A DNA stretch of 64,000 nt from Octopus vulgaris (GCA_951406725.2 OX597833.1:37634001-37698000), one strand, 5' to 3'; counted from the stretch's first letter, positions 5,249 through 57,151 are shown. Program-made: numbers and translations. The notes: generated by a model not told the origin, from the sequence alone.

Positions 5249-7144
5249 CCGTAAATTCCGGACTACAGAGCGCACCTGATTAAAAGCCGCATGCTCTACT
5301 TTTAGAAAGAAAATCAATTTTGTCCTTGTACAGGCCGCACCGGATTTTAAGCTGCAGGTGTCCAACGTTGTAATATGAGATATTTACACAGAAAGATATT
5401 ACACGTGAGGACTTTTTGACTTTTAATTTAGTCTGTATGATATCATAAACAAACACATTTTGCAAATGCTTTTTTTCAAACAGTGCCTGCTACCTTTAAA
5501 TATATGTATGTATCAGTAACACACAAATTACGTTACTTATGCTTTTTTACTGAACAGTACACGAACGACATTCCTCCTAACGACATTCCTCCTATATATA
5601 TACACACACTGCAGCTTACCAGGTCAAAAGTTATTGATCGCCTTCTTCATCTTCTTCCTGCACACTGAAACCATCGAAGTCCTCTTCTTCAGTGTCCGAA
5701 TTGAACAGACTCAGGATCTCGTCACTCACTTCATTGTCGCTCTCACTTGAGCACACCCAGTACTCTTCATCATGCAGCAGTCCAGCTTTTCAAAACCCGT
5801 TGGTGATGATGGATGTTTTGACACGGCTCCATGCATTTAGTTGAGTGAAAGATGCTCTTCGCATGCAGCCTGTTTTGGTGAAGGATTTCTCGCTGCTCGT
5901 CATCCAATCCTCCCACTCACGGCGCAGTGCCACTTTAAATGCCCGGTTCACGCTGATCTCCAGTGGCTGCAAATACTTAGTGGTGCCACCAGGAATTACA
6001 GCTGGAATTGAGTTTGTACTCTTGGTGGCAGCTTTCACTGAATCTGTTATATGGGCCCTCATGCTGTCCATAAAGAGCAATGCTTTTTTTGTGTGAAAAA
6101 ATCCCCCAGGTCATTTGGCATAGCACTCTCTGAGCCAATCCTTCATTAGGCTCTCCATCATCCAACCTTTCTTATTGACTTTCACCACAATTTCTTTTGG
6201 GAATTTTTCCTTTGGCATTGTCAGCTGCTTAAAAATCACCATCGCTGGAAGCTTTAGTCTGGATGCTGTGCACCCCAGAACACAGGTAAAATGCATTCTC
6301 TCATGGCCACTTGTTTTCAGTGTGATGGATGAGTCACCTTTTTTATTAACAGTCCAAGTGAGTGGCAGGTCAAACGTCAAAGGTACTTCATCCATATTTA
6401 TGATATTTTCTGGCCCGATGGAATTCTTTGCTATCTTTGTTTGAGTGAATGTGAGAAAGTTAACAAGTTTTTCCTCATAGTCGGGAGGGAGCTGCTGACA
6501 CAAAGTCATGCATGCCCTGACGGACAGGCCTCTTCTCATAAATCTAAAACACCATGATGGCCCACATCCAAAATCTTCGATTTTCATTTCAGTGACGATT
6601 GTTTTAGCCTTCAGTCTGATCTGCACAGTGGAAATACTGCAGTTGCTTGCTCTCCATATGTTAACCCAGTCTTCAAGAAAGTTTTCAAGTTTGAGCCATC
6701 TGCTATAGTTACCTCTGAAAGCTTTCGTTGTTTTTTTGCACTGACTCAGTTCTTCCTGCTGGCATCTCCACTGTCTCACCCTCGATTCATTTATGCCAAG
6801 TTTACGTGCAGCAACTCGATTTCCTTCTTCAACCGCCAGATTGACCGGCTTCAACTTAAAAGCTGCATCATATGCTTTTCTTCAAGTGTTTTCCATGTTA
6901 ACGAGGGTGAATACAAATGACAGCTTTACAATACCGGTAATCGATTTGTGAAAGTGCTCTTGATTTATCGCACAATTTCATTGGACCTCTGTGACCTACT
7001 CATCAATTTGATTGGTCTACTGTTGTGAGGCAAAACGTTTTTTGCGGCATGACAAAATAAAACATGCATTAGCCGCACCATAGTATCAGCTACAATGTTC
7101 AAAGTGTGGGAAAAAAGTAGCGGCTTATAGCCCAAAATTTACGG
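5249..7144 (-). mobile_element. pogo/Tigger-like DNA transposon, both ends present, decayed transposase
   Basis: TA|CCGTAAATTCCGGACTA...TAGCCCAAAATTTACGG|TA terminal inverted repeats with TA target duplication. Confidence 0.9.
5790..6896 (-). pseudogene. pogo-type (POGK-like) transposase, frameshifted
   Basis: ORFs 6111-6854 and 5790-6080 carry an HTH region and DDE_1 motifs (NMDEVP, FMDS..AH, IPGGTTKYLQPL.ISVN) split by a frameshift. Confidence 0.88.
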
Positions 7145-25903: not shown

Positions 25904-25927
25904 TTATATGTGTGTGTGTGTGTGTGT

Positions 25928-26807
25928 GTGGTGTGATCAATAATTATCCGGACTGATGTTATAGTAGCAAAGCTAAAACACAGAGAGTGGAGCTGCTTAG
26001 CACAGATTGACATTGAACTCTGCTATGCATGTGCACAAAGCTTTAATGTTCTAGCTCACTTCTGCTGCAAACAGCAGCAATTGGAAGAAAGGTGTGTAGC
26101 ATGTCATCATCATATTGACCATGACAGAGAAAGTTGAGCTGAGAACATGCATCAAATTTTGCCAGAAGCTTGATGATATGCAAAGTTTTCGAAAGTTTTT
26201 CATCATTCTTGACACAATCAAGGAGCTCTTGTGCAACTGAAACTCTAGTGTCTTTTTGGTCAGCTGAAAGCAGTTTTGACACAAACTTGGCAGACACGTG
26301 TCTCATACCAAAATCTTCAGTGATAATGGACTGAACTGAGCCATAACTAATCTGCACATCCTCTGTTAACTCACAGATGGTGATTCAACGATTTCCCTCA
26401 CAGTTTCATGTACATTTTCAATGTTTTTCTCAGTTCTGCTGGCTGCAGGTCTCCCAGAACATTCGTCACTATTGGTATTTTTCTCAACCATCTTGGAAAC
26501 ACCTGAACCCCTCAAACACTTGTGTGTAGCTCATACACTCCTCTCCATACACTTTCTGCAACTTTTTGTAGGCCTCTGAGCAGGTATCGCCATGACAACC
26601 TTCTCTGTCACGGTCAATGTGACAATCACATGCTACACACCTTCCTTCCAAGCACTGCTGTAAACAGCAGAAGTGAACTAGAATGTTAAAACTTAATACA
26701 CAAGCACAGCAGAGTTCAGGGTCAATCTGTGCCAAGCAGCTTCACTCTGCATGCTTTAACTTCATTACTATGGCAACTGTCCGGATACATATTGATCAGA
26801 CCTCATA
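25928..26807 (-). mobile_element. Mariner-derived fold-back element with two left ends and a partial transposase N-terminus
   Basis: TIR-like TGATCAAT..TATCCGGAC at both ends with ~180-240-bp inverted arms. ORFs 26484-26735 and 26043-26357 encode mariner HTH-like pieces (YGEECMS..QVF; GSVQSII...M..VSAKFV.KLL). Confidence 0.85.
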
Positions 26808-27263
26808 CAGAAAGGAGAATAGTCAATTGTAGTGAAATATATACATACACACGTGTATATATTCTCTTTTACTCTTTAATTTGTTTCAGTCATTAGACTG
26901 TGGCCATGCTGAAGCACCACCTTGAAGAATTTTTAGTTGAATGTATCAATTTATTTTTCTATTTTTTATTTTTTTAAAGCCTAGTACTTATTCTATCAGA
27001 ATCTCTTGTTGAAGCGTTAAATTACAGGGACATAAACACACCAGCACTAGATATATATACATACATAAATAGAAATATATTTACATATATATACATGCAC
27101 ACACACACACACACACATATACAACAGGCTTCTTTCAGTTTCCATCTACTAAAGCCACTCCCAAGGCTTTGGTGAGCTTGAGGCTAGAGTAGAAGGTGTC
27201 ATGCATTGGGATTGAATCCAGAACCATGTGGTTGGGAAGCAAGCTTCATGGCCACCCCAACGC

Positions 27264-27296
<33 letters not shown>

Positions 27297-27363
27297 CACA
27301 CACACACACACACACAGAGAGAGAAAAGGGAAAACAGCAATTGTAGGCCACCAGGATACTTAC

Positions 27364-27490
27364 ATACTGAAGGAAAGCATGTAACTGAGGATAACTCTTA
27401 GGATCATTTGTAGCAGCAAACAATGGCTCGAAGATATTCTCTAAGATCTGTTGGAAGTTGCTCACTAACTTGTTGGAACGATACACATCA
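27364..27490 (-). CDS. AMPD2: AMP deaminase 2-like exon (DVYRSNKLVSNFQQILENIFEPLFAATNDP...FLQY)
   Basis: Matches 'NFQEMLENIFLPLFEAT'. aag acceptor after a long pyrimidine tract, gtaagt donor, 127 nt. Confidence 0.95.
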
Positions 27491-27997
27491 CTTGAAGAGA
27501 GTAAAAAAGAAAAAACACAAAGAATATACTATTAAAATATACACAATGAGAACATGCGGTTTTGAAATATATGCCATCAATTGGAATGTATACCATTATT
27601 ATATACACATTTAGTGTATATACCATTGTTATCGTCATCATCGTCGTCATTGTTGTCATCATTATCATCATAATTATTTAACATTTATTTTCCATAGTGG
27701 CATGAGTTGGATGGTTTGACAGGAGCTCAATTGTCTACTTTGGCAAGGTTTCTATAACTCGAAGCCCTTCCTAACACCAACCAATTTACGGAGTGTACTG
27801 GGTGCTTTTTATGTGGCACCTGCAGCAGTGAGGTCACCAAGTAACTTACAAGACATGACTCCTCAACTGAGTGGGGAGTAAGAGTAAGGAGGTGGCTTAG
27901 TGCCAGGTGATGGGAGGTTAGAGTATGAACAGAGGGACAGAAACAGGTATTTTGCTGTAGAGGAGATGCATGGCTACCTTAGTTGGAAAAGAAAAAG

Positions 27998-28048
<51 letters not shown>

Positions 28049-28737
28049 GGTGAAGATGTGTTGGGTGTACCCCAAAGATAGACGCAGAGAAATGTAAGCA
28101 CAGTGGTATGGGAGATTGGATAGGGTAAGTGGGCTGGTAAGTTTGTGAATAAAACTACTGAATAATAATAATAACAACAACAACAATAATAATAATAATA
28201 ATAACAATAATAATAAACATATATTACTTCTGTATACTCTTCTCAGATCCATGTGATCCTCTTACATTTTTCTTTCTATGGTTGGTGTGGTATTAAACTT
28301 AGAGGGCTCAAGTTGGGGCTGTTCCCATTCAAGTGACCATCCAGGTTCATATCCAGAGAAGAGTTTGTGCCAGTGGATGACTTTTTGACCCCAAGCTGGC
28401 TCTTTCCTGGGAGACATGCCTCTAGATTAACTGTAGGACAAGCAATTTGGTGTGGTCGTAGTTTTCCTTTTTGCTTCATTAGACATATTTGTGCTACATT
28501 AAAATTATTAGTATTGAGCTCTATGTGACAAATGTAGAGACAGTTGTGGTCTCTGCCACGACTGTCAACTCCACCAGTGATGACATTGGGATGGAATTTG
28601 GTCTTGATAAACGTGCCAAAGCTACTTCCCAAAAAGGGAAATTATTGACCTGACATTCAATGGTGTTAGATGTTGACATGGTTATAAAAGAACTCAAGCA
28701 GGAATAAACTTGCAAATACCTTGGAATAAATGAGGTC

Positions 28738-30840
28738 GGCACTGTCATGCATTTGGGTGTCAGAAGTGAAAGTAGAGAAATCTGACGTCAGACGTCAACT
28801 TCGTGTATATACGTCGTCTTTCGTTTATTTACGCCGTTTATTTACGTACCACTGAAATGCAAGTAAAAGCTTGTATGTATGTATGTATGTATGTATATAT
28901 ATATACATACATACACACATATATATAATATACATGTATATATACATATATATATATATATATTTAATACATACATATATATAATATATACATGTATTTT
29001 TACCGCCTTTAGTCGCACAAATCGACCCCAGAACTTATTCTATCGGTCTTTTTTCTTAACCACTATACATTATATACATACATACAGATAGATAGATAGA
29101 TACACACACACACATATAATAGATATAAAATGTGTACGTGTGTACATTTTTCAGAAAAAAATTCATACATTTTAAATATCAATAGCATTTCTCTTATTTT
29201 TTACATGAAGTTTTCGAAAAATGAATTTAGAATGTAAAAATCAAATATATCAAATTAATAAACGCAAATTATTTTCAAATATCATTTTCAACGGTGAGAT
29301 TATCAAAATATAAACTTGAAGTTAAGTTTAAAAATAAATGCGATACTCATTCTGTCTTGATACTTATGCTCAAATACATGGATATAGCTGTCGAATTTGT
29401 TCTATCAACTTCCCGAATATATCATCCTTAAATTCATAGCACCACATGAATTCGATGAGATGGGTCTGAAGTAAATTTCTGGCTGTTCCACATTCTCTCC
29501 TATTTCGAGTCTTTACGTGTTTCCATAAACATTCTATGTGGTTGGTTGTGGCAAATGATTGGTGTATGTAATCGCGGTGATGGTCATGGGGGTTCATTTG
29601 TGCAGATTTTGGTGTGATTTCTTTTTTAAAAACAATAATGAATAATGCAAGAATATATTTATTGGAGGAATTTTTGCCGCGATGTATGTGCAGAATATTA
29701 TGTTGCACAGAATATTAAACTGGGAGGACCCAATAGAATCGTTGAAATAGATGAAACTGCGTTTGTTAAGAGAAAATATCATGTTGGCCATCGGGTTAAA
29801 ACGCAATGGGTGTTTGGTGCATTAGAAAGAGATAGCAGAAGATGTATTTTAGTGGCAGTTGAAAATCGAACAGCGGACACTCTATTACAGATTATACGCG
29901 AGCGTATATTGCCTGGTACAACAATAATATCCGACCTTTGGCGTTCGTATAATACACTCAGTCAGCTAGGATACAGACATTTGACCGTGAATCATTCTAT
30001 AAATTTTGTTGATCCGGTAACATTTGCCACAACCAACCACATAGAATGTTTATGGAAACACGTAAAGACTCGAAATAGGAGAGAATGTGGAACAGCCAGA
30101 AATTTACTTCAGACCCATCTCATCGAATTCATGTGGTGCTATGAATTTAAGGATGATATATTCGGGAAGTTGATAGAACAAATTCGACAGCTATATCCAT
30201 GTATTTGAGCATAAGTATCAAGACAGAATGAGTATCGCATTTATTTTTAAACTTAACTTCAAGTTTATATTTTGATAATCTCACCGTTGAAAATGATATT
30301 TGAAAATAATTTGCGTTTATTAATTTGATATATTTGATTTTTACATTCTAAATTCATTTTTCGAAAACTTCATGTAAAAAATAAGAGAAATGCTATTGAT
30401 ATTTAAAATGTATGAATTTTTTTCTGAAAAATGTACACACGTACACATTTTATATCTATTATATGTGTGTGTGTGTATCTATCTATCTATCTGTATGTAT
30501 GTATATAATGTATAGTGGTTAAGAAAAAAGACCGATAGAATAAGTTCTGGGGTCGATTTGTGCGACTAAAGGCGGTAAAAATACATGTATATATTATATA
30601 TATGTATGTATTAAATATATATATATATATATGTATATATACATGTATATTATATATATGTGTGTATGTATGTATATATATATACATACATACATACATA
30701 CATACAAGCTTTTACTTGCATTTCAGTGGTACGTAAATAAACGGCGTAAATAAACGAAAGACGACGTATATACACGAAGTTGACGTCTGACGTCAGATTT
30801 CTCTACTTTCACTTCTGACACCCAAATGCATGACAGTGCC
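28738..30840 (+). mobile_element. Fold-back Merlin (IS1595/ISXO2-like) DNA transposon with 820-bp inverted arms
   Basis: Ends are GGCACTGTCATGCATTTGGG...CCCAAATGCATGACAGTGCC. 28738-29557 is the reverse complement of 30021-30840. It interrupts an R4/Dong LINE whose sequence resumes on the other side. Confidence 0.92.
29645..30208 (+). pseudogene. Merlin/IS1595-family DDE transposase, N-terminally truncated (catalytic domain open)
   Basis: Motifs GGP..IVEIDE, WVFG.LER, I.PGTTIISD.W.SY, H.TVNHS.NFVDP, TN.IE.LW are typical of DDE_Tnp_IS1595/Merlin. Confidence 0.9.
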
Positions 30841-31624
30841 AGGGCTCTGGCACCCAGCATGCAAGTATGAAAGAGAACATGAGGAAGAAATATTCCAGGG
30901 GAGTTCAAGCAGCCATAAACCCAAGTTAAATGCATGTAACAAGGTGTTAGCTATAAATTCCTTAGCAGTTCTAGTTGTTATTTACAATTTCAATGTTTTG
31001 AACTGGAATGTGAGCAAAATAAGGAAGGCTGACAGGAAAATCCATAAGCTGCTGACTTGCAATAAGATGCACCACCCAAAGGCAAATGCAGATCATCTTT
31101 ACCTTCCCAGAGCTCGAGGAGGTCAAGGCTTGATCCAATTTGAAATCTCTTACAAAACAATCACAATTGGACTGGCCAAATACCCTGAAACATCTAATGA
31201 CTGGATGCTAAAACTCGTTGAAAACCATGGTAGACATGAGAAGCTTCATTCTGTAATGAAGGAGAGCAAAAAATTTGCTGGTATGTTCATGCATAATACC
31301 CAGGTTGAACAGCATGATGGAAGTGCAGCAACTGTAATTGCAAAAGAAGTGAAATCAATAGCAAAGCAAAATGCGTTTGAACAATTGGCTGATATGTGGG
31401 AGAAAAAACTTCTGCATGGCAAATATGTGGCCCATAGCAAACAAGCTGATGTAGACCAGAAGCACACCCATCAATGGCTACAAAGCTCAGGGCTAAAGGC
31501 AGAGAGAAAAAAGTTTTATCTTGGCTGCTTAAGAGCAGAGCTTACTGATCTGAACCTGTCAAGCTAATGTAATGGAAAATGGAGTAGACCCAAAGTGCCA
31601 ATACTGCAATGATGGGATTAGACA

Positions 31625-32010
31625 TAGTGTTAATTGAGAAAGAAAGCAAACGATGCTGGATCATAGATATTGCACGCCCAACTGGCAACAAGGTATGCGA
31701 TAAGGAAGAAAGAAAAGATGATAGCTATGACAGGTTAGCATAGGAGGGTAAGTAGTTGTGGTCGATGAAAAAGTTGGTAGTAGTACCAATAATTGTCGGA
31801 ACCCTGGGAACAGTGAGTAAAAATCTTGAGAAGTGCATGGAACAAATAAGGGCTGCAATAAGCATGGATCACTTGCAGAAAACAGCACTGCCTGGAACAG
31901 CTCAAATACTCTGGATGCTGCTCGGAAAATAAGGGGTATTACCTTAGTTCACTGGCACCATAGTACGTCTCCAGCATTAGAAGCTGTGCAAAGACAATAA
32001 ATAATAATAA
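31625..32010 (+). mobile_element. 3' fragment of a second R4/Dong-like element ending in a TAA repeat
   Basis: Degenerate endonuclease-end sequence (IIDIA.P...VVVPIIVG.LG...LQKTAL.GTA) followed by (TAA)n. Confidence 0.7.
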
Positions 32011-32814
32011 CTAATGACAGTTCCAAATGTATGATCTTTACAAAGAATTTACAAATGAAGAATGAATTAGGGACTCTTTGTTGCTGTAACTAGTGGAACT
32101 TGATTTATGATCTCCACATAAGACTTTAAAGGAATTTCATTAGCTGAATCTAGGCTGTCACTTCTCATCTCAGTTAGGTAAAATAACAGTTCATTGATTT
32201 TACCACTGGAGGCTTACAAGGATCATGCTAGAGATCAATTTTATAGTCAAAGTTCAATTGGGGCAGTGTTATTAAACTGAAATACTAACAAAAACAAGTC
32301 AGATGAATTGTAGATTTGCTTAGCTCTAGTCACATGATTTCAGGGTAAATTACAGAAAACCGATCTGAATTATCATGTTTTGAAAAGGCCAGAGAATTAA
32401 TTGCAATTAACAATTACATTGACAATTTCAAAGCAGTAACACTCATCTTAAGGAGTCTGCAAAATTCATGAGTGCTACTAAGCTATAAATATTTTTGTGA
32501 AAGTGCTTCAGGGCTGAAAATAATATTGACAACATTTCAACAATAGTGATGATAATGCTCTGAATCTTACTGAAATATATTGGTTAACAACTGTCTATAA
32601 GTGCTGAGACTGATTGGCAGAACACTTGGAATGCTGCAAAGGACCTTAAAGTTAAACATTTTACTCAGACTTATAGTTATGTTCCAAAAGATGAAGCTTC
32701 TTTTGTAACATTTCTCTTATTGTAATTGTTTCAAATTGAATCCCGTATAATGATAAATTTTTTCTCTTTTTGGTAAATATGGTGGAAGGGGCAGTACTCG
32801 TGGCTTTCACAAGG

Positions 32815-33900
32815 CTTTTAAGTCTGGTGTAATTGATACCATTACTGCCCTGTTGCAAGTCAATGGCTGCAGGATATACATGTGCAGAAAGAGAATTCCA
32901 GAGAGTCAGCATTCTATGGAGAAGGGACTAGACATAGTGGTTTGTGTGGTGCCTGAGAAATTGCACACAGTATGGGTGATGAGAAGAGAAGAAAGAGTAA
33001 ATTGGTAGTGCCTGAGTGGAGTGACATGAGACTAACCAGGAGCAAAGACTGTCATAGTAAACATAGAAGAAAAATATACAGAGAGAGGAGGCAGCATGTA
33101 TGTAGATCAGAGGCTGGATCATGTCTGAGGGAATTTTTGCTAATCAGTTGTGTAACCTTTCTCTGATGTGGCCAAAGATTTTTCTGTATGTAGTAGCAGC
33201 ACCATCCTAGATGTAGAAACAGTACTCCATTGTGAATCTCCTCCAAGATTTGTGGGACATTAATTGTTGAGGACTGAAGTACTTTCTGACTCTGAAGGGA
33301 AAGACCAGACTTTGAGCTGCAATACTAAGTGTTAAGGACATGTATTTACCATCAGAGATTCTCAGAATTGTGATGTTTATCTTTTGAAGCAATTGCAATA
33401 ACTCTAGTTGTGTGCTGCTGACGTTTAAGAGGCGAGGTTCAATGATGTTTGGATGATTTGAGCAGAACTGGCGTTCTTACCATTTTATTTTTTTCTATTT
33501 TGATTTTGATCTTCACAATGACAAACTACTCAAGGTCTCTGTTCATAAAGTCAATGCAGATTTAGCAAGAGGCATATAAGTTACATATGGATAAGTTTGA
33601 ATACAAAAGGAATGAAGGGCGGATATCATCAGTGTAAAAGTAAGCATTGTTGAACATGATGACAAATAGGTCCTTGATGAGAAAAGGAAAAAGGGGTAGA
33701 ACAGAAAATATGAGATCTGATACAAAATGGATCTGAAAGTTTTCTATCAGTGCAGGCCACAATAAGTTACCAAATCATGAGATAAAAGATGGATGAAAAC
33801 TGTAGGCAGATATTTTGACAAGAGATTTGCTTGCTGGACACAATTAAAAGTGAAGCTGATGTTGAGAGAAATAACATTACTTTCACCAAATTTCCTTGAT
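32815..33900 (-). mobile_element. Old degenerate CR1/L2-type LINE
   Basis: Fragmentary LINE C-terminal motifs (LWNSL...YP..DLQ) on the minus strand. Boundaries approximate. Confidence 0.55.
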
Positions 33901-34298
33901 ACAAGAGCCCACGGGTGAGAAACATAGAGAGTAGTCCTACAACAAATCAAATTTTACAAGATTGTACAAGTGGTCAATAAAAAGAAAGTCAGAAATTCAG
34001 AAATGTTATTGTTAATGGGTGTATCCATTACTTTTGAGATATTTAAAGGTAAGTGCTATAGGACAATAACTAGCAGAATCAGAAGAGTTGTTTTTCTTTA
34101 GAATGGGATACGCTGTAGTAGAAGGTACATTGGATAATTTAGCAATTTATACAAAAAAAAGTTGGGAAGGCTACAAACAGAACACCTTTTATTATAGATA
34201 TTCTATCTGTGACTAAGAGTTAAACAATAACAGTATCATGATTAAGAAACCCCCCAAAAAAATTAGGCCATAGAGTCACAAAAGTTATTGATACTTAC

Positions 34299-34462
34299 TA
34301 TAATCTTGGAATTTGGATTAACCAACGAACATTATCTGAATGGACTTGGTTGACCACAGCCCATTTGGCTAGTTTCTCCCATTCTTGTTTAGAACGGCCA
34401 TATATAGACAAACGGCATTCGGCATTTTGATATTTGCTCTCCTCCAAATCACTCATCACTTC
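34299..34462 (-). CDS. AMPD2: AMP deaminase 2-like exon ([24 protein letters not shown]...[11 protein letters not shown])
   Basis: Near-identical to the AMPD2 motif. gcag acceptor, gtaagt donor, 164 nt. Confidence 0.97.
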
Positions 34463-35813
34463 CTGCAAAAAGAAACATGTGAATGTTTGATATATTTATC
34501 ATAGCATGAGATTATAATGGCAATAATTATTTCCAGTTAAGTCAGATACAGAGAACAAATATAGAGAACTGGATTTATAGATATATATAATCCAATTTGC
34601 ATATTTGGATAACTTTGTATGAAGTAGGGAGAAGAGAATCTTGATATATTGAGTAAAGACCCACATCGGAGAAAGAAAATCATTTCCCTACTGAATTTAC
34701 AAATGCTTTTTGTCTCCTTTTGGATGGAAGCTCTCATGACATCATTTATTTTCCATTTTTACTTTGAACAGATATTGTTTAAGCAGCAGTGCTGAGAAAG
34801 AGTCAAGCCTCCTCTAACATGTTTCTACTTCAACTTAAATAAAGCACTCAATTGCAAGTTAGGATATAGTTATGTATTTATTCCAAGTGAATTTGTAGTC
34901 ATTTGTAGTGAATTTGTAGTGAATTTGTAGTCATTACACTGACTAGTCTCACGAAACTCAAGTTAGTATTCAACACTTTCAGTGAGAATATATATATATA
35001 ACTTTATACAATCTTCCATGTATATAAATGTATTTATAACTGTTAATATTCAAGCAGCCCCAAAGGCTACCAAATTCATCCAACTACAAAATTTTGGCCT
35101 TAAAGGTATAACTTCTCTTCCTTCTTTCTCTTAAATGTTTAATATTTTAGTCATAATCCTTTAATATGAAAATTTATGAAAAGATGTTCCCAAATCGCCC
35201 AAGTATTTCAAGTGGCTGTGTGGTAAGTAGCTTGTTTACCAACCACATGGTTCCGGGTTCAGTCCCACTGCGTGGCACCTTGGGCAAGTGTCTTCTACTA
35301 TAGCCTCGGGCCAACCAAAGCCTTGTGAGTGGATTTGGTAGACGGAAACTGAAAGAAGCCCGTCGTATATATGTATATATATATATATAAATATATGCGT
35401 GTGTGTGTTTGTGTGAGTGTGTTTGTCCCCCTAGCATTGCTTGACAACCGATGCTGGTGTGTTTATGTCCCCGTTACTCAGCGGTTCGGCAAAAGAGACC
35501 GATAAAATAAGTACTGGGCTTACAAAAGAATAAGTCCCAGGGTTGAGTGGCTTGATTAAAGGCAGTGCTCCAGCATGGCCGCAGTCAAATGACTGAAACA
35601 AGTAAAAGAGTAAAGAGTAAAAGAGTATTCTTTTTCCCTAAACAATATTATCAATCAAATTGTAAATCCACATATTGTAGAGTTCTTTCCCTTCCAACCT
35701 GAGTGAAAGTTGAAATAACCATGAAGTTCTCAGATGGTACAATCCCTATCCCCACACATGTATACATACCCTTCTCTCTCATATAATTTTTTTAAAGAAA
35801 GCATTAGGCTTAC

Positions 35814-50525: not shown

Positions 50526-50784
50526 TTGCAGCGTTGAAGGTGTTTATAAGCCATTTAAGAAACACACAAAAACCGTTAGATTCACTTCAACATTTAAATT
50601 TAATTTGTCAAAATATTTTCGTCGCTTTGAGACCGCGACCTGTTAGCACGATATTTTTGTCAGTGAACAGGTCGCGGTCTGAAAGTGACGAAAATATTTT
50701 GGCAAATTAAATTTAAATGTTGAAGTGAATGTAACGGTTTTTGTGTGTTTCTTAAATGGCTTACAAACACCTTCCACGCTGCAA
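50526..50784. repeat. Inverted repeat with ~119-bp arms (50526-50644 / 50666-50784)
   Basis: Direct comparison of the arms shows only a few mismatches. Confidence 0.9.
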
Positions 50785-55144: not shown

Positions 55145-56896
55145 TATCTTTTTTTTTCTTCTTCTTCTTTCAAATTTGCTTCCATTTCTTGCCGAGTGTC
55201 TTCCCGTCTCCTAGGGCAAAGAAACTCATAGTATACATTGGTATGCCATTAAACTAAACTCACTAGTTCGTTCATTTTTTTTTTTAATTAAAATACATGG
55301 GTAGTAATAGTTCTCACGTCGACAATGCTCTTCTCAATATGTGTGATGTACCAGTTAAGACAATCTTTTGCACTTCTTGCAGGGATGGTAAGCCAGGGAT
55401 CATTCTCATATAATTTTCAGTTCCCTTCTTGATCATTCCTAGTGCTCCTATGATCACTGGTATTGTAACCGCCTTGAGATGCCACATTTTCTCAATTTCA
55501 ATGAGCAGGTCTTTATATTTTCTGAGCTTGTCAAACTCTTTCGCCGAGATATTATGATCACAGGGGATGCTCATGTCGATCAATAAGCAAACTTTATTGT
55601 TTTGGTCTTTCACAACAATATCCGGTTTATTGGCTTTGATGGTTCGGTCTGTATGTACTGGAAAGTCCCACAGAATCGTTACATTTTCTCCTTCAGTTAC
55701 AGCTTCAGGGTGGTGATTATACCACTTGTCGGCAGTTTTGATATTGTAAGGCCGACTTATTAGCCAGTGTAGATATTGGCCAACTCTGTCATGTCTTAAT
55801 TTATACTCCACTGGTGCTAAGACTTTACATCCAGAGATTAGGTGGTCCACTGTTTCAGTCATGTCATTGCAGAATCGACATTTTGGGTCTGCTCCATTTC
55901 TCATCACATTGGCCTGGTAGTTCCGGGTTAATAGGCTTTGATCTTGAGCAGCCAGGATGAAACCTTTGCTCTCTGCTTTTAACCCTGAGCTCCGTAGCCA
56001 CTGATGGGTTTGCTTCTGGTCAACATCAGCTTGTTTGCTACGGGCCACATATTTGCCATGCAGAGGTTTCTCCTCCCACCTATCAGCCAATTGCTCATGT
56101 GCTTTTTTCGTTGCCACTATTTTCACCTTCTTTGCAACAATAGTTGCCGTACTTCCCTCAGGTTGTTCAGTTTGGGTATCCTGCACGAGATCAATAGCAA
56201 ATTTTTTGCTTTCCTTTATGATAGAATGAAGCTTCTTTCGTCTCTCGTGATTTTCCATGAGCTTTAGCATCCAGTCATTCGTTATTTCAAGATATTTGGC
56301 CAATCCAATTGTGATTGTTTTGTAAGCTAGTTCAAATTGGATCAGGCCTCGACCTCCTTGGACTCTGGGAAGGTAAAGGTGATCTACGTCTGCCTTTGGG
56401 TGGTGCATCCTATTACAACTCAGCAGCTTGCGTATTTTCCTATCTATATTCTTTACTTCACTCATATTCCAGTTCAACACATTGTAGCTATAAGTAACAA
56501 CTGGAACTGCTAAGGAATTTATAGCTAACACCTTGTTACGTGCATTTAGTTCAGATTTCAGGACTGCACAAACTCTTCTATAACATTCCTTCTTGATCTT
56601 CTCTTTCATGCTTGCATGCTGAATACCAGAGCCTTCATTTATCCCTAAATATTTGTATGTTTGTTCTTGCTCAAGCTCTCTTATGACTGTGTCAACATCT
56701 AACACGACTGAATTTGTGGTCTTCACTTTCCCTTTCTGGAAAGTGGCCTTGGCACACTTCTCAAGTCCAAACTCCATCCCAATGTCATCACTGAATGCTT
56801 TCACAGTGCGCAATAGGCCTTCAAGTTCATTATCGTCTTTACCATAGAGTTTTAAGTCATCCATATAAAATAGATGGCTTATTTTTTTATTGGCAA

Positions 56897-56898
<2 letters not shown>
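55145..56898 (-). mobile_element. 5'-truncated R4/Dong-clade non-LTR retrotransposon in a (TAA)n tract
   Basis: ORF 55314-56996 has RT C-terminal YMDDLKLY, a CCHC knuckle (CRFC...HLISGC), RHD and a restriction-like endonuclease (KPDIVV..D...LID). Both ends border TAA-type repeats. Confidence 0.92.
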
Positions 56899-56928
<30 letters not shown>

Positions 56929-57151
56929 GCAGAATCATTAGCATGCCAGGCAAAATGCACATCAGCATTTTGTCTGTCTGCACATTCTGGGCTCAAATTC
57001 TACCGAGGTTGACTTTGCCTTTCATCCTTTCAAGGGTTGATAAATTAAGTACCAGCTAAACACTGGGGTCAATGTAATCAACTAGGACCCTCCCTCAAAA
57101 TTCCTGGTCTTGTGCCAAATTATGAAGCCTTTATTATTATTATCATCATCG

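Follow-up and report, generated by a model that had tools for sequence, protein, structure and literature searches.

A twin-ended Merlin element with perfect 820-bp arms in an octopus AMPD2 intron, probably descended from a palindromic parent

Transposon derivatives with replaced ends and long terminal inverted repeats (TIRs) are known in mariner and Galileo elements, where their origin has been called elusive or attributed to an unseen dimer (PMC4678618; PMC4161770; PMC3573991). In the portions of the literature drawn on here, the closest precedent for the octopus element described below is the mariner lineage Rpmar17/Rpmar49 of Rhodnius prolixus. There, as in our element and its relative L032, the 5' part is replaced by an inverted 3' part, the long TIRs contain transposase homology, and the breakpoints are copy-specific around one region, as they are across the octopus Merlins; its authors hypothesise a dimer progenitor followed by independent deletions (PMC4678618). 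The Drosophila mariner MITEs Dromar7, 11, 28 and 36 also resemble our element in having one end swapped for the inverted other, long TIRs and 5'-derived termini (PMC4161770). In the extended-TIR (2RT) Galileo elements, internal sequence was recruited into the repeats, like in the octopus arms, a process attributed to break repair and recombination (PMC3573991). The maize loci Mu killer and Ac killers have in common with ours a partial inverted duplication with two 5'-side termini, located in or beside a host transcription unit (PMC3440606; bioRxiv 2020.01.07.897926). Finally, the octopus element has the features of the Merlin/IS1595 superfamily: the DDE_Tnp_IS1595 domain, terminal GG, 8-bp target site duplications (TSDs) in its family and internal tandem repeats (PMC8101967).

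The element lies in the window, by which we mean the whole 64,000-nt stretch of Octopus vulgaris DNA that was analysed. What we report on the identity of the arms, the type of the ends, the axis, the deletion junctions, the capture donor, the structures of the siblings and their clade was read from assembled sequence, that is, from the window and the 2.8-Gb assembly. A sequence-only reading of the window had described an 820-bp fold-back free of indels, with paired coordinates summing to 59578, and this holds at 820 of 820 positions: 28738-29557 and 30021-30840 are exact reverse complements, their pairing breaks off sharply at both limits, and a spacer of 463 bp separates them. In the self-comparison of the window, this is the longest and the sole perfect large inverted pair, the next ones being 584 nt at 82% and 272 nt at 93%. 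The mirrored ORFs at 28879-29091 and 30487-30699 do translate identically, as had been pointed out, but this is a trivial consequence of the identity of the DNA. The self-comparison also revealed a self-complementary stretch of 260 bp (90%) at 50526-50784. The element is made up as follows.

28738..29557, minus strand: left arm, an exact inverted copy of 30021-30840 (820/820 complementary).
28738..28852, plus strand: terminus derived from the canonical Merlin left end, including a 53-bp TIR that starts with GG (comparison with ordinary ends).
28853..29242, plus strand: captured host DNA of ~390 bp, with microsatellites, the tail of a high-copy repeat and AT-rich unique DNA; boundaries approximate (donor-like locus).
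29370..29557, minus strand: the transposase stop with the 62 codons before it, in antisense to the right-arm copy (188 nt of ORF in the stem).
29558..29655, minus strand: inverted 98-bp remnant of the transposase 5'UTR (100% over 108 bp to L031, L033 and L034).
29656..29659, no strand: 4-nt loop of the ancestral fold-back axis, which reads GCAAGAATA-loop-TATTCTTGC in siblings (axis match in siblings).
29645..30208, plus strand: 187-aa ORF that takes its ATG from the inverted 5'UTR and continues in frame into the catalytic half of the transposase (PF12762, E=3.5e-18).
30021..30840, plus strand: right arm, with the transposase 3' end, 3'UTR, a remnant of the 46-bp subterminal repeats, captured DNA and a left-end-type terminus (comparison with ordinary copies).

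Both ends begin with GGCAC, as in the rest of the family, and thus with the 5'-GG of Merlin elements. The element had been taken to carry two right ends. Instead, outside the TIR that the two ends have in common, the canonical left end is a far better match to both termini (53 identities, score 79) than is the right end (40 identities, score 26). The proposal that a second right end replaced the left end and the transposase N-terminus stands for the last 62 codons, which do lie antisense in the left arm, but not for the termini, which are of the left type. The captured DNA has a donor-like locus devoid of Merlin sequence at G000:C19:50.59 Mb (L113). A 27-mer from this DNA gave 2,393 genomic matches at up to one mismatch and was discarded as a subfamily marker, as it belongs to a high-copy host repeat; Merlin sequence was present in none of the 22 further loci checked from it. 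A variant at 28809, with its mirror at 30769, is private to the window copy and absent from all siblings.

The spacer is not plain remainder of the transposase but a composite of inverted 5'UTR, loop and deletion junctions. Relative to a sibling arm, the 98-bp remnant is joined to the left arm through an 817-bp deletion at a TG microhomology. On the other side, four bases past the loop, a deletion of ~553 bp at an ATT microhomology (29661-29663) created the ORF fusion and removed ~120 N-terminal aa. The resulting open frame has about 187-188 codons, starts at 29642 or 29645 and ends at 30208 on the plus strand. With a predicted product of 187 aa, against ~301 aa, and without these N-terminal residues, the window copy cannot be autonomous. 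When the deletions are restored, both halves rebuild to an arm of 1,735 bp (98+817+820 and 4+553+1178), which implies a parent of about 3.47 kb.

The element interrupts a retrotransposon that itself lies in an intron of the gene for AMP deaminase 2 (AMPD2).

27490..34300, minus strand: GT..AG intron of the host gene for AMP deaminase 2 (its flanking exons are 34301-34468 and 27358-27489).
28520..31930, plus strand: decayed non-LTR retrotransposon (LINE) split by the element, limits approximate (~80% identical to the paralog at 55317-56999, minus strand).
28733..28737, plus strand: left target-site remnant AGGTC (alignment of the LINE flanks to the paralog).
30841..30848, plus strand: right target site AGGGCTCT, which agrees with the LINE sequence of the empty site (paralog alignment).

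Aligned to the paralog at 55.3-57.0 kb, the LINE flanks are colinear across the insertion, which adds five bases beyond the element (AGGTC on the left, AGGGC on the right), where the ordinary family has eight. The sequence-only reading was thus right that the LINE resumes on either side with a degenerate target duplication. Taken as 8-mers, the two sites match at only 2 of 8 positions, and the TSD of the window copy is a net, imperfect duplication of 5 bp rather than one of 8-9 bp. The five extra bases prompted us to consider a superfamily with 5-bp TSDs, which is ruled out by the 8-bp TSDs of the family. In view of the abnormal TSD, either the window insertion did not come from a clean transposition or repair has reworked it.

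The placement in an AMPD intron was also correct. The exons on both sides of the GT..AG intron belong to AMPD2 on the minus strand, the 12 exon matches of the octopus AMPD2 protein span 62065-9681 on that strand, and for one AMPD exon of the window the identity with AMP deaminase 2 from Octopus species is 100%. Since the element lies within this intron, the pre-mRNA of this allele would contain both arms, and the long hairpin envisaged earlier could form if the intron is transcribed.

The locus has several other features. Two AMP deaminase genes lie in tandem, at G000:C20:37.60-37.68 Mb and at 37.875-37.90 Mb, and the one in the window has much longer introns than its neighbour. The LINE paralog at 55317-56999 (minus strand), with Pfam matches to RVT_1 and, weakly, to zf-RVT, has an open frame of 561 codons, is inverted relative to the interrupted LINE and forms with it a second long inverted pair (771 bp, 80%) in the AMPD2 pre-mRNA. 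The assignment of the interrupted LINE to R4 was made in the sequence-only reading. Another AMPD intron holds the remnant of a pogo/Tigger-type transposase (HTH_Tnp_Tc5, DDE_1) at 5793-6881 (minus strand). A frame of 113 codons at 26046-26384 (minus strand), which by eye resembles the N-terminus of a mariner transposase and has no Pfam match, is flanked by a 214-nt inverted pair (25923-26136 and 26596-26809).

To place the window copy in its family, we searched the genome with the centre of the element, which returned at least 188 matches from the 40 of 121 candidates that were scored, and with the TIR pattern, which has 73 exact matches; 20 loci were taken for comparison. Ordinary copies (e.g., L040) are ~1.6 kb long and consist of a left end, a 5'UTR, an ORF of 301 aa, 46-bp subterminal repeats and a right end. 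Their TIRs have 53 bp, extendable to about 69 (L036, L037, L038, L040, L041, L043), and their left and right ends are distinct. Among the other two-ended copies, the TSD is perfect (8/8) in 8 of 10 and matches at 7/8 positions in 2 of 10, with the provisos that one of the eight perfect ones is an uninformative TA run (L032) and that two had ends placed by eye. The domain DDE_Tnp_IS1595 (PF12762), found in the window ORF with E=3.5e-18, is present in all three full-length copies searched (66-68 bits), and the best homologs are Octopus ISXO2-like proteins. Pfam found no Zn_Tnp_IS1595 in any of the three full-length proteins; to our knowledge, Merlins lack the IS1595 zinc finger. The full-length transposase at L040:3805-4707 has an N-terminal CxxC...CxxxC motif, for which the Pfam zinc-finger match is below threshold (E about 0.03). 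Full-length ORFs are present in L033, L034, L035, L040, L041 and L044. The older copies L099-L104, tandem or rearranged, are direct duplications or deletions and not fold-backs. At L035:3107-3663 (G000:C7), tandem expansion of the 46-bp subterminal repeat to about 12 units has given rise to a proto-satellite within the element.

These ordinary copies bear on another account of the arms, namely that this is a Merlin family with naturally very long TIRs. Merlin TIRs of 24-462 bp have been reported (PMC8101967); the ordinary TIRs fall in this range, whereas the 820-bp arms of the window copy lie outside it, and its TSD is abnormal for the superfamily. The six ordinary full-length copies, with terminal repeats of 53-69 bp and distinct ends, refute the account, as does the presence of coding sequence and captured host DNA in the arms. 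Hence, in line with the earlier reading, long arms are not the family norm, and we regard natural long TIRs as extremely unlikely.

Nor is the element a one-off event: it is one of nine loci that go back to a common fold-back. The young left-type end has 10 matches in the assembly, which together with the error-rich L048 define these nine loci. Besides the window copy, four of them keep or start at the same axis, and two have the same twin termini with other centres. The axis 20-mer occurs four times in the 2.8-Gb assembly, three times in Merlin copies and once in L052, a match unrelated to Merlin that was set aside. L034 retains the axis between arms of 368 bp, with 0 mismatches and 3 gap columns. 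The axis forms the start of L031 and L033, which have 11 and 8 bp from the opposite arm, respectively, and the start of L035 falls within the loop. The loop is found in both orientations among siblings. At the corresponding site of canonical L040 there is no more than a stem of 4 bp around a 4-nt loop (-0.3 kcal/mol, vs -9.8 for the derived axis). Among the twin-ended relatives, L032 (C1) has arms of 1,161 and ~1,142 bp around a different centre that contains filler, and its left arm shows one difference from the window arms in 819 aligned sites plus one indel. L096 (C13) is an element of 127 bp with a perfect 8-bp TSD, and both its ends carry a TIR variant otherwise private to the window copy and L032. 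Two siblings are asymmetric, L034 and L035: they have a left-type end on one side of the gene and a right-type end on the other, together with full-length ORFs and perfect 8-bp TSDs. Centres and breakpoints differ among the window copy, L032, L096, L034 and L035. No two of the 10 young left-type ends lie ~3.4 kb apart in the assembly, as the ends of a full palindrome would.

Some of these loci deserve a separate description. L034:2922-5035 (G000:C8) holds a near-perfect palindrome of 741 bp over the 5'UTR and the N-terminal coding part, together with a full-length ORF and a perfect TSD; it adjoins a copy of the LINE family that the window element interrupts, and, as in Mu killer, its hairpin comprises the 5' part of the gene. 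L031 (G000:C20, about 865.9-867.7 kb) is a half element that starts from the axis, with host flanks that form a direct duplication of 132 bp (97.7% identical); it could be, in no order of preference, a one-ended insertion, a repair product or an assembly join. L042 and L048 (G000:C27, 22.60 and 22.66 Mb) are truncated copies in a large inverted duplication, ~56 kb apart and near a 100-N gap, and as one copy is error-rich, this may be an assembly duplication.

The error-rich sequence of L048, in a large inverted duplication near a gap, and the 100% identity of the window arms even through microsatellites are what one might expect if the palindrome were an artefact of assembly or of a read folding back. 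However, the LINE is colinear on either side, the spacer holds the family-wide axis and two microhomology junctions, and twin-ended relatives occur on two other chromosomes with flanks of their own. An artefact is thus very unlikely, and the earlier view of a real insertion is upheld.

A tree of the 3' half of the transposase (26 rows, copies with fewer than 400 aligned bases left out) groups all nine rows from fold-back-derived loci in one clade (100/99). This clade is nested among ordinary elements, contains none of them and is the youngest of the family. The window copy is at its tip, in agreement with the recent Merlin-derived insertion suggested before.

We consider it likely that the window element is a copy of a head-to-head palindromic Merlin parent of ~3.5 kb, most of whose centre was lost by two microhomology deletions. 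In a first step, a broken strand of an ordinary 1.6-kb Merlin would have folded back in the 5'UTR (canonical position ~185), at the 4-bp inverted repeat and its 4-nt loop. Synthesis primed there would have made a second, inverted copy of the transposase cassette, and the arm so formed would have been joined to the left end. The new arm then captured ~390 bp of host DNA and the arms became identical, as their structure attests, giving twin left-type termini; the symmetry may have arisen by arm-to-arm exchange, compare the two orientations of the loop among siblings. The twin-ended form would next have been mobilised to at least three sites (window, L032, L096), as indicated by their distinct locations and target duplications. 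A different part of the hairpin-prone centre is missing from each copy, presumably lost later by hairpin or cruciform breakage repaired through microhomology joining, which widened the spacer. In the window copy, it went from 4 nt to 463 bp, a change that would raise stability. In yeast mutants, fold-back priming occurs on repeats of 5-9 bp, and short spacers are less stable (portions of PMC7999016). Some observations weigh against this parent. The assembly holds no full palindrome, the TSD of the window copy is abnormal, and the variant confined to both arms of that copy would require later arm-to-arm conversion or consensus polishing. The 4-bp seed stem is shorter than the 5-9 bp of the yeast mutants (portions of PMC7999016), and the TA run that makes up the TSD of L032 is uninformative. 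For the twin-ended parent, sequence corresponding to canonical 291-768 is present on one arm only, so that we infer its full symmetry.

The same copies can be explained without a symmetric mobile parent, if an asymmetric insertion like L034 or L035 had its TIRs extended in place, as in Galileo, by end-over-end conversion separately at each locus. Such asymmetric elements do exist, with perfect 8-bp TSDs and full-length ORFs, and the recruitment of internal sequence into longer TIRs is documented in the relevant part of the Galileo study (PMC3573991). The damaged TSD and the private variant in both window arms also point to local repair; they suggest further repair or conversion at this site, although the shared variant could alternatively result from consensus polishing. 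However, the same conversion would be needed at three unlinked loci, no assembled asymmetric element has the captured DNA, and the window copy retains the axis and 98 bp of inverted 5'UTR, with both halves rebuilding to equal arm length. We therefore regard extension in place as rather unlikely and favour the palindromic parent.

If there was such a parent, was it autonomous? The shared transposase changes that followed the fold-back are 11 synonymous and 6 nonsynonymous (p=1e-4 vs neutrality), and the later trunk changes in the 3' half are 7 and 0 (p=2e-5). These mostly silent changes would fit a palindromic lineage that stayed autonomous. However, the contrast between coding and UTR positions counts against this simple reading: trunk sites number 27 in 900 coding positions, with no derived site in 333 UTR positions (the two UTR differences are ancestral states). 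Between L034 and L033, 26 of 300 third codon positions have changed, vs 2 of 300 UTR positions (Fisher p=2e-6); in ordinary pairs, UTRs and third positions diverge about equally (p=0.41 for L040-L041). Between L034 and L035, all 301 third positions are identical, which means that the trunk changed much faster than these inserted copies. The coding sequence was possibly imported from an unsampled sister lineage. Import from the older assembled subfamilies was discarded, as 21 of the 29 sites are in no older copy, and a genome pattern search found no ordinary element with the young variant. Among the coding changes of the young lineage (L033, L031, L034, L035 and window 29663-30208), 11 of 27 are G to A on the sense strand. 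We can thus only tentatively suggest, and rather doubt, that the active form is an autonomous perfect palindrome of ~3.5 kb, with two outward-facing transposase genes and a 4-nt loop, under purifying selection and with fast synonymous change, of which only collapsed descendants assemble; L031 and L033 would then perhaps be mis-assembled or resolved palindromes.

The sequence-only reading also likened the element to Mu killer: read-through from AMPD2 would produce an 820-bp hairpin, and hence siRNAs that silence Merlin in trans. This is a matter of function and is compatible with an origin from a palindromic parent. The element does lie inside the AMPD2 transcription unit, and no other inverted pair of at least 150 bp and 80% identity has both arms in that intron. 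Both its termini come from the transposase-proximal end, as in Mu killer (portions of PMC3440606), there is a documented case of an Ac killer that a host gene drives from an intron (portions of bioRxiv 2020.01.07.897926), and the full-length ORFs in L033, L034, L035, L040, L041 and L044 are candidate targets. However, coding sequence makes up only 188 of the 820 stem bases, 30 of the 31 inverted pairs of this size and identity in the AMPD2 gene span are others in the same pre-mRNA, and the youngest clade kept inserting after older hairpin-capable copies, e.g. L034, existed. Even for Mu killer, the read-through model is disputed by one study (PMC3440606, in part). In addition, the consulted part of a mollusc survey that includes Octopus bimaculoides reports no siDicer, siAgo or Dicer-type read pairs; this survey saw no endo-siRNA signature and suggested editing for such duplexes, while allowing for rare exceptions or cell types (PMC12479628). 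We thus deem the window element unlikely to act as a silencer of Merlin. In squid, editing is widespread on repeats and introns (portions of PMC9068888). In view of this and of the mollusc survey, ADAR editing would be a likelier fate than dicing if the allele is transcribed: the AMPD2 intron is predicted to fold into an 820-bp duplex, which would probably be A-to-I edited and discarded with the intron, not diced. The locus is in any case a clean natural substrate for the way molluscs handle a perfect intronic duplex of 820 bp, be it by editing, dicing or the feeding of piRNAs.

How does the octopus lineage differ from the systems described before? In the sources as far as consulted, the Rpmar17 lineage is a mariner with about 200 loci, vs about nine loci of the superfamily Merlin here (PMC4678618). 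The octopus copies have left-end termini and sizes from 127 bp to 2.3 kb, and some of those with the axis have a full ORF. Unlike in Rpmar17, the axis itself is still present in several copies and corresponds to a 4-bp inverted repeat in the ordinary element. This favours fold-back priming over a deletion between two neighbouring copies. In the Dromar MITEs, 5' sequence replaces the 3' part, with one fixed breakpoint per sublineage (PMC4161770, in part), whereas the octopus copies have left termini fused to the 3' part of the gene and a centre of their own in every copy. Galileo has natively long TIRs, and the portion of that study drawn on here does not describe a head-to-head coding cassette with a common axis (PMC3573991). 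In Mu killer, the duplicated segment is ~1.3 kb from the 5' part of mudrA (PMC3440606, in part), whereas the window stem has 115-bp 5'-derived termini and 188 nt of the 3' end. The maize loci, in the same partial sources, are single alleles with demonstrated trans-silencing in an siRNA-competent host, and in the Ac killers with dsRNA and siRNAs, whereas silencing by the window element is hypothetical.

The string 'palindrom' is absent from the main text of the Merlin survey (PMC8101967). In a literature search that covered few subscription journals, we found no report of a head-to-head palindromic autonomous transposon, while Repbase-type supplementary tables may hold similar Merlins. If the palindrome is indeed the autonomous form, transposon catalogues based on assemblies would miss such masters. 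The axis, the inverted repeat that would have seeded it and the collapsed copies are all readable in one genome, which makes the route from fold-back through palindrome and transposition to central deletion directly testable. Compared with the known systems, the novel features of the octopus lineage are an axis that has survived along with its seed repeat, left-type termini on 3' arms, and axis-bearing copies with full-length ORFs.
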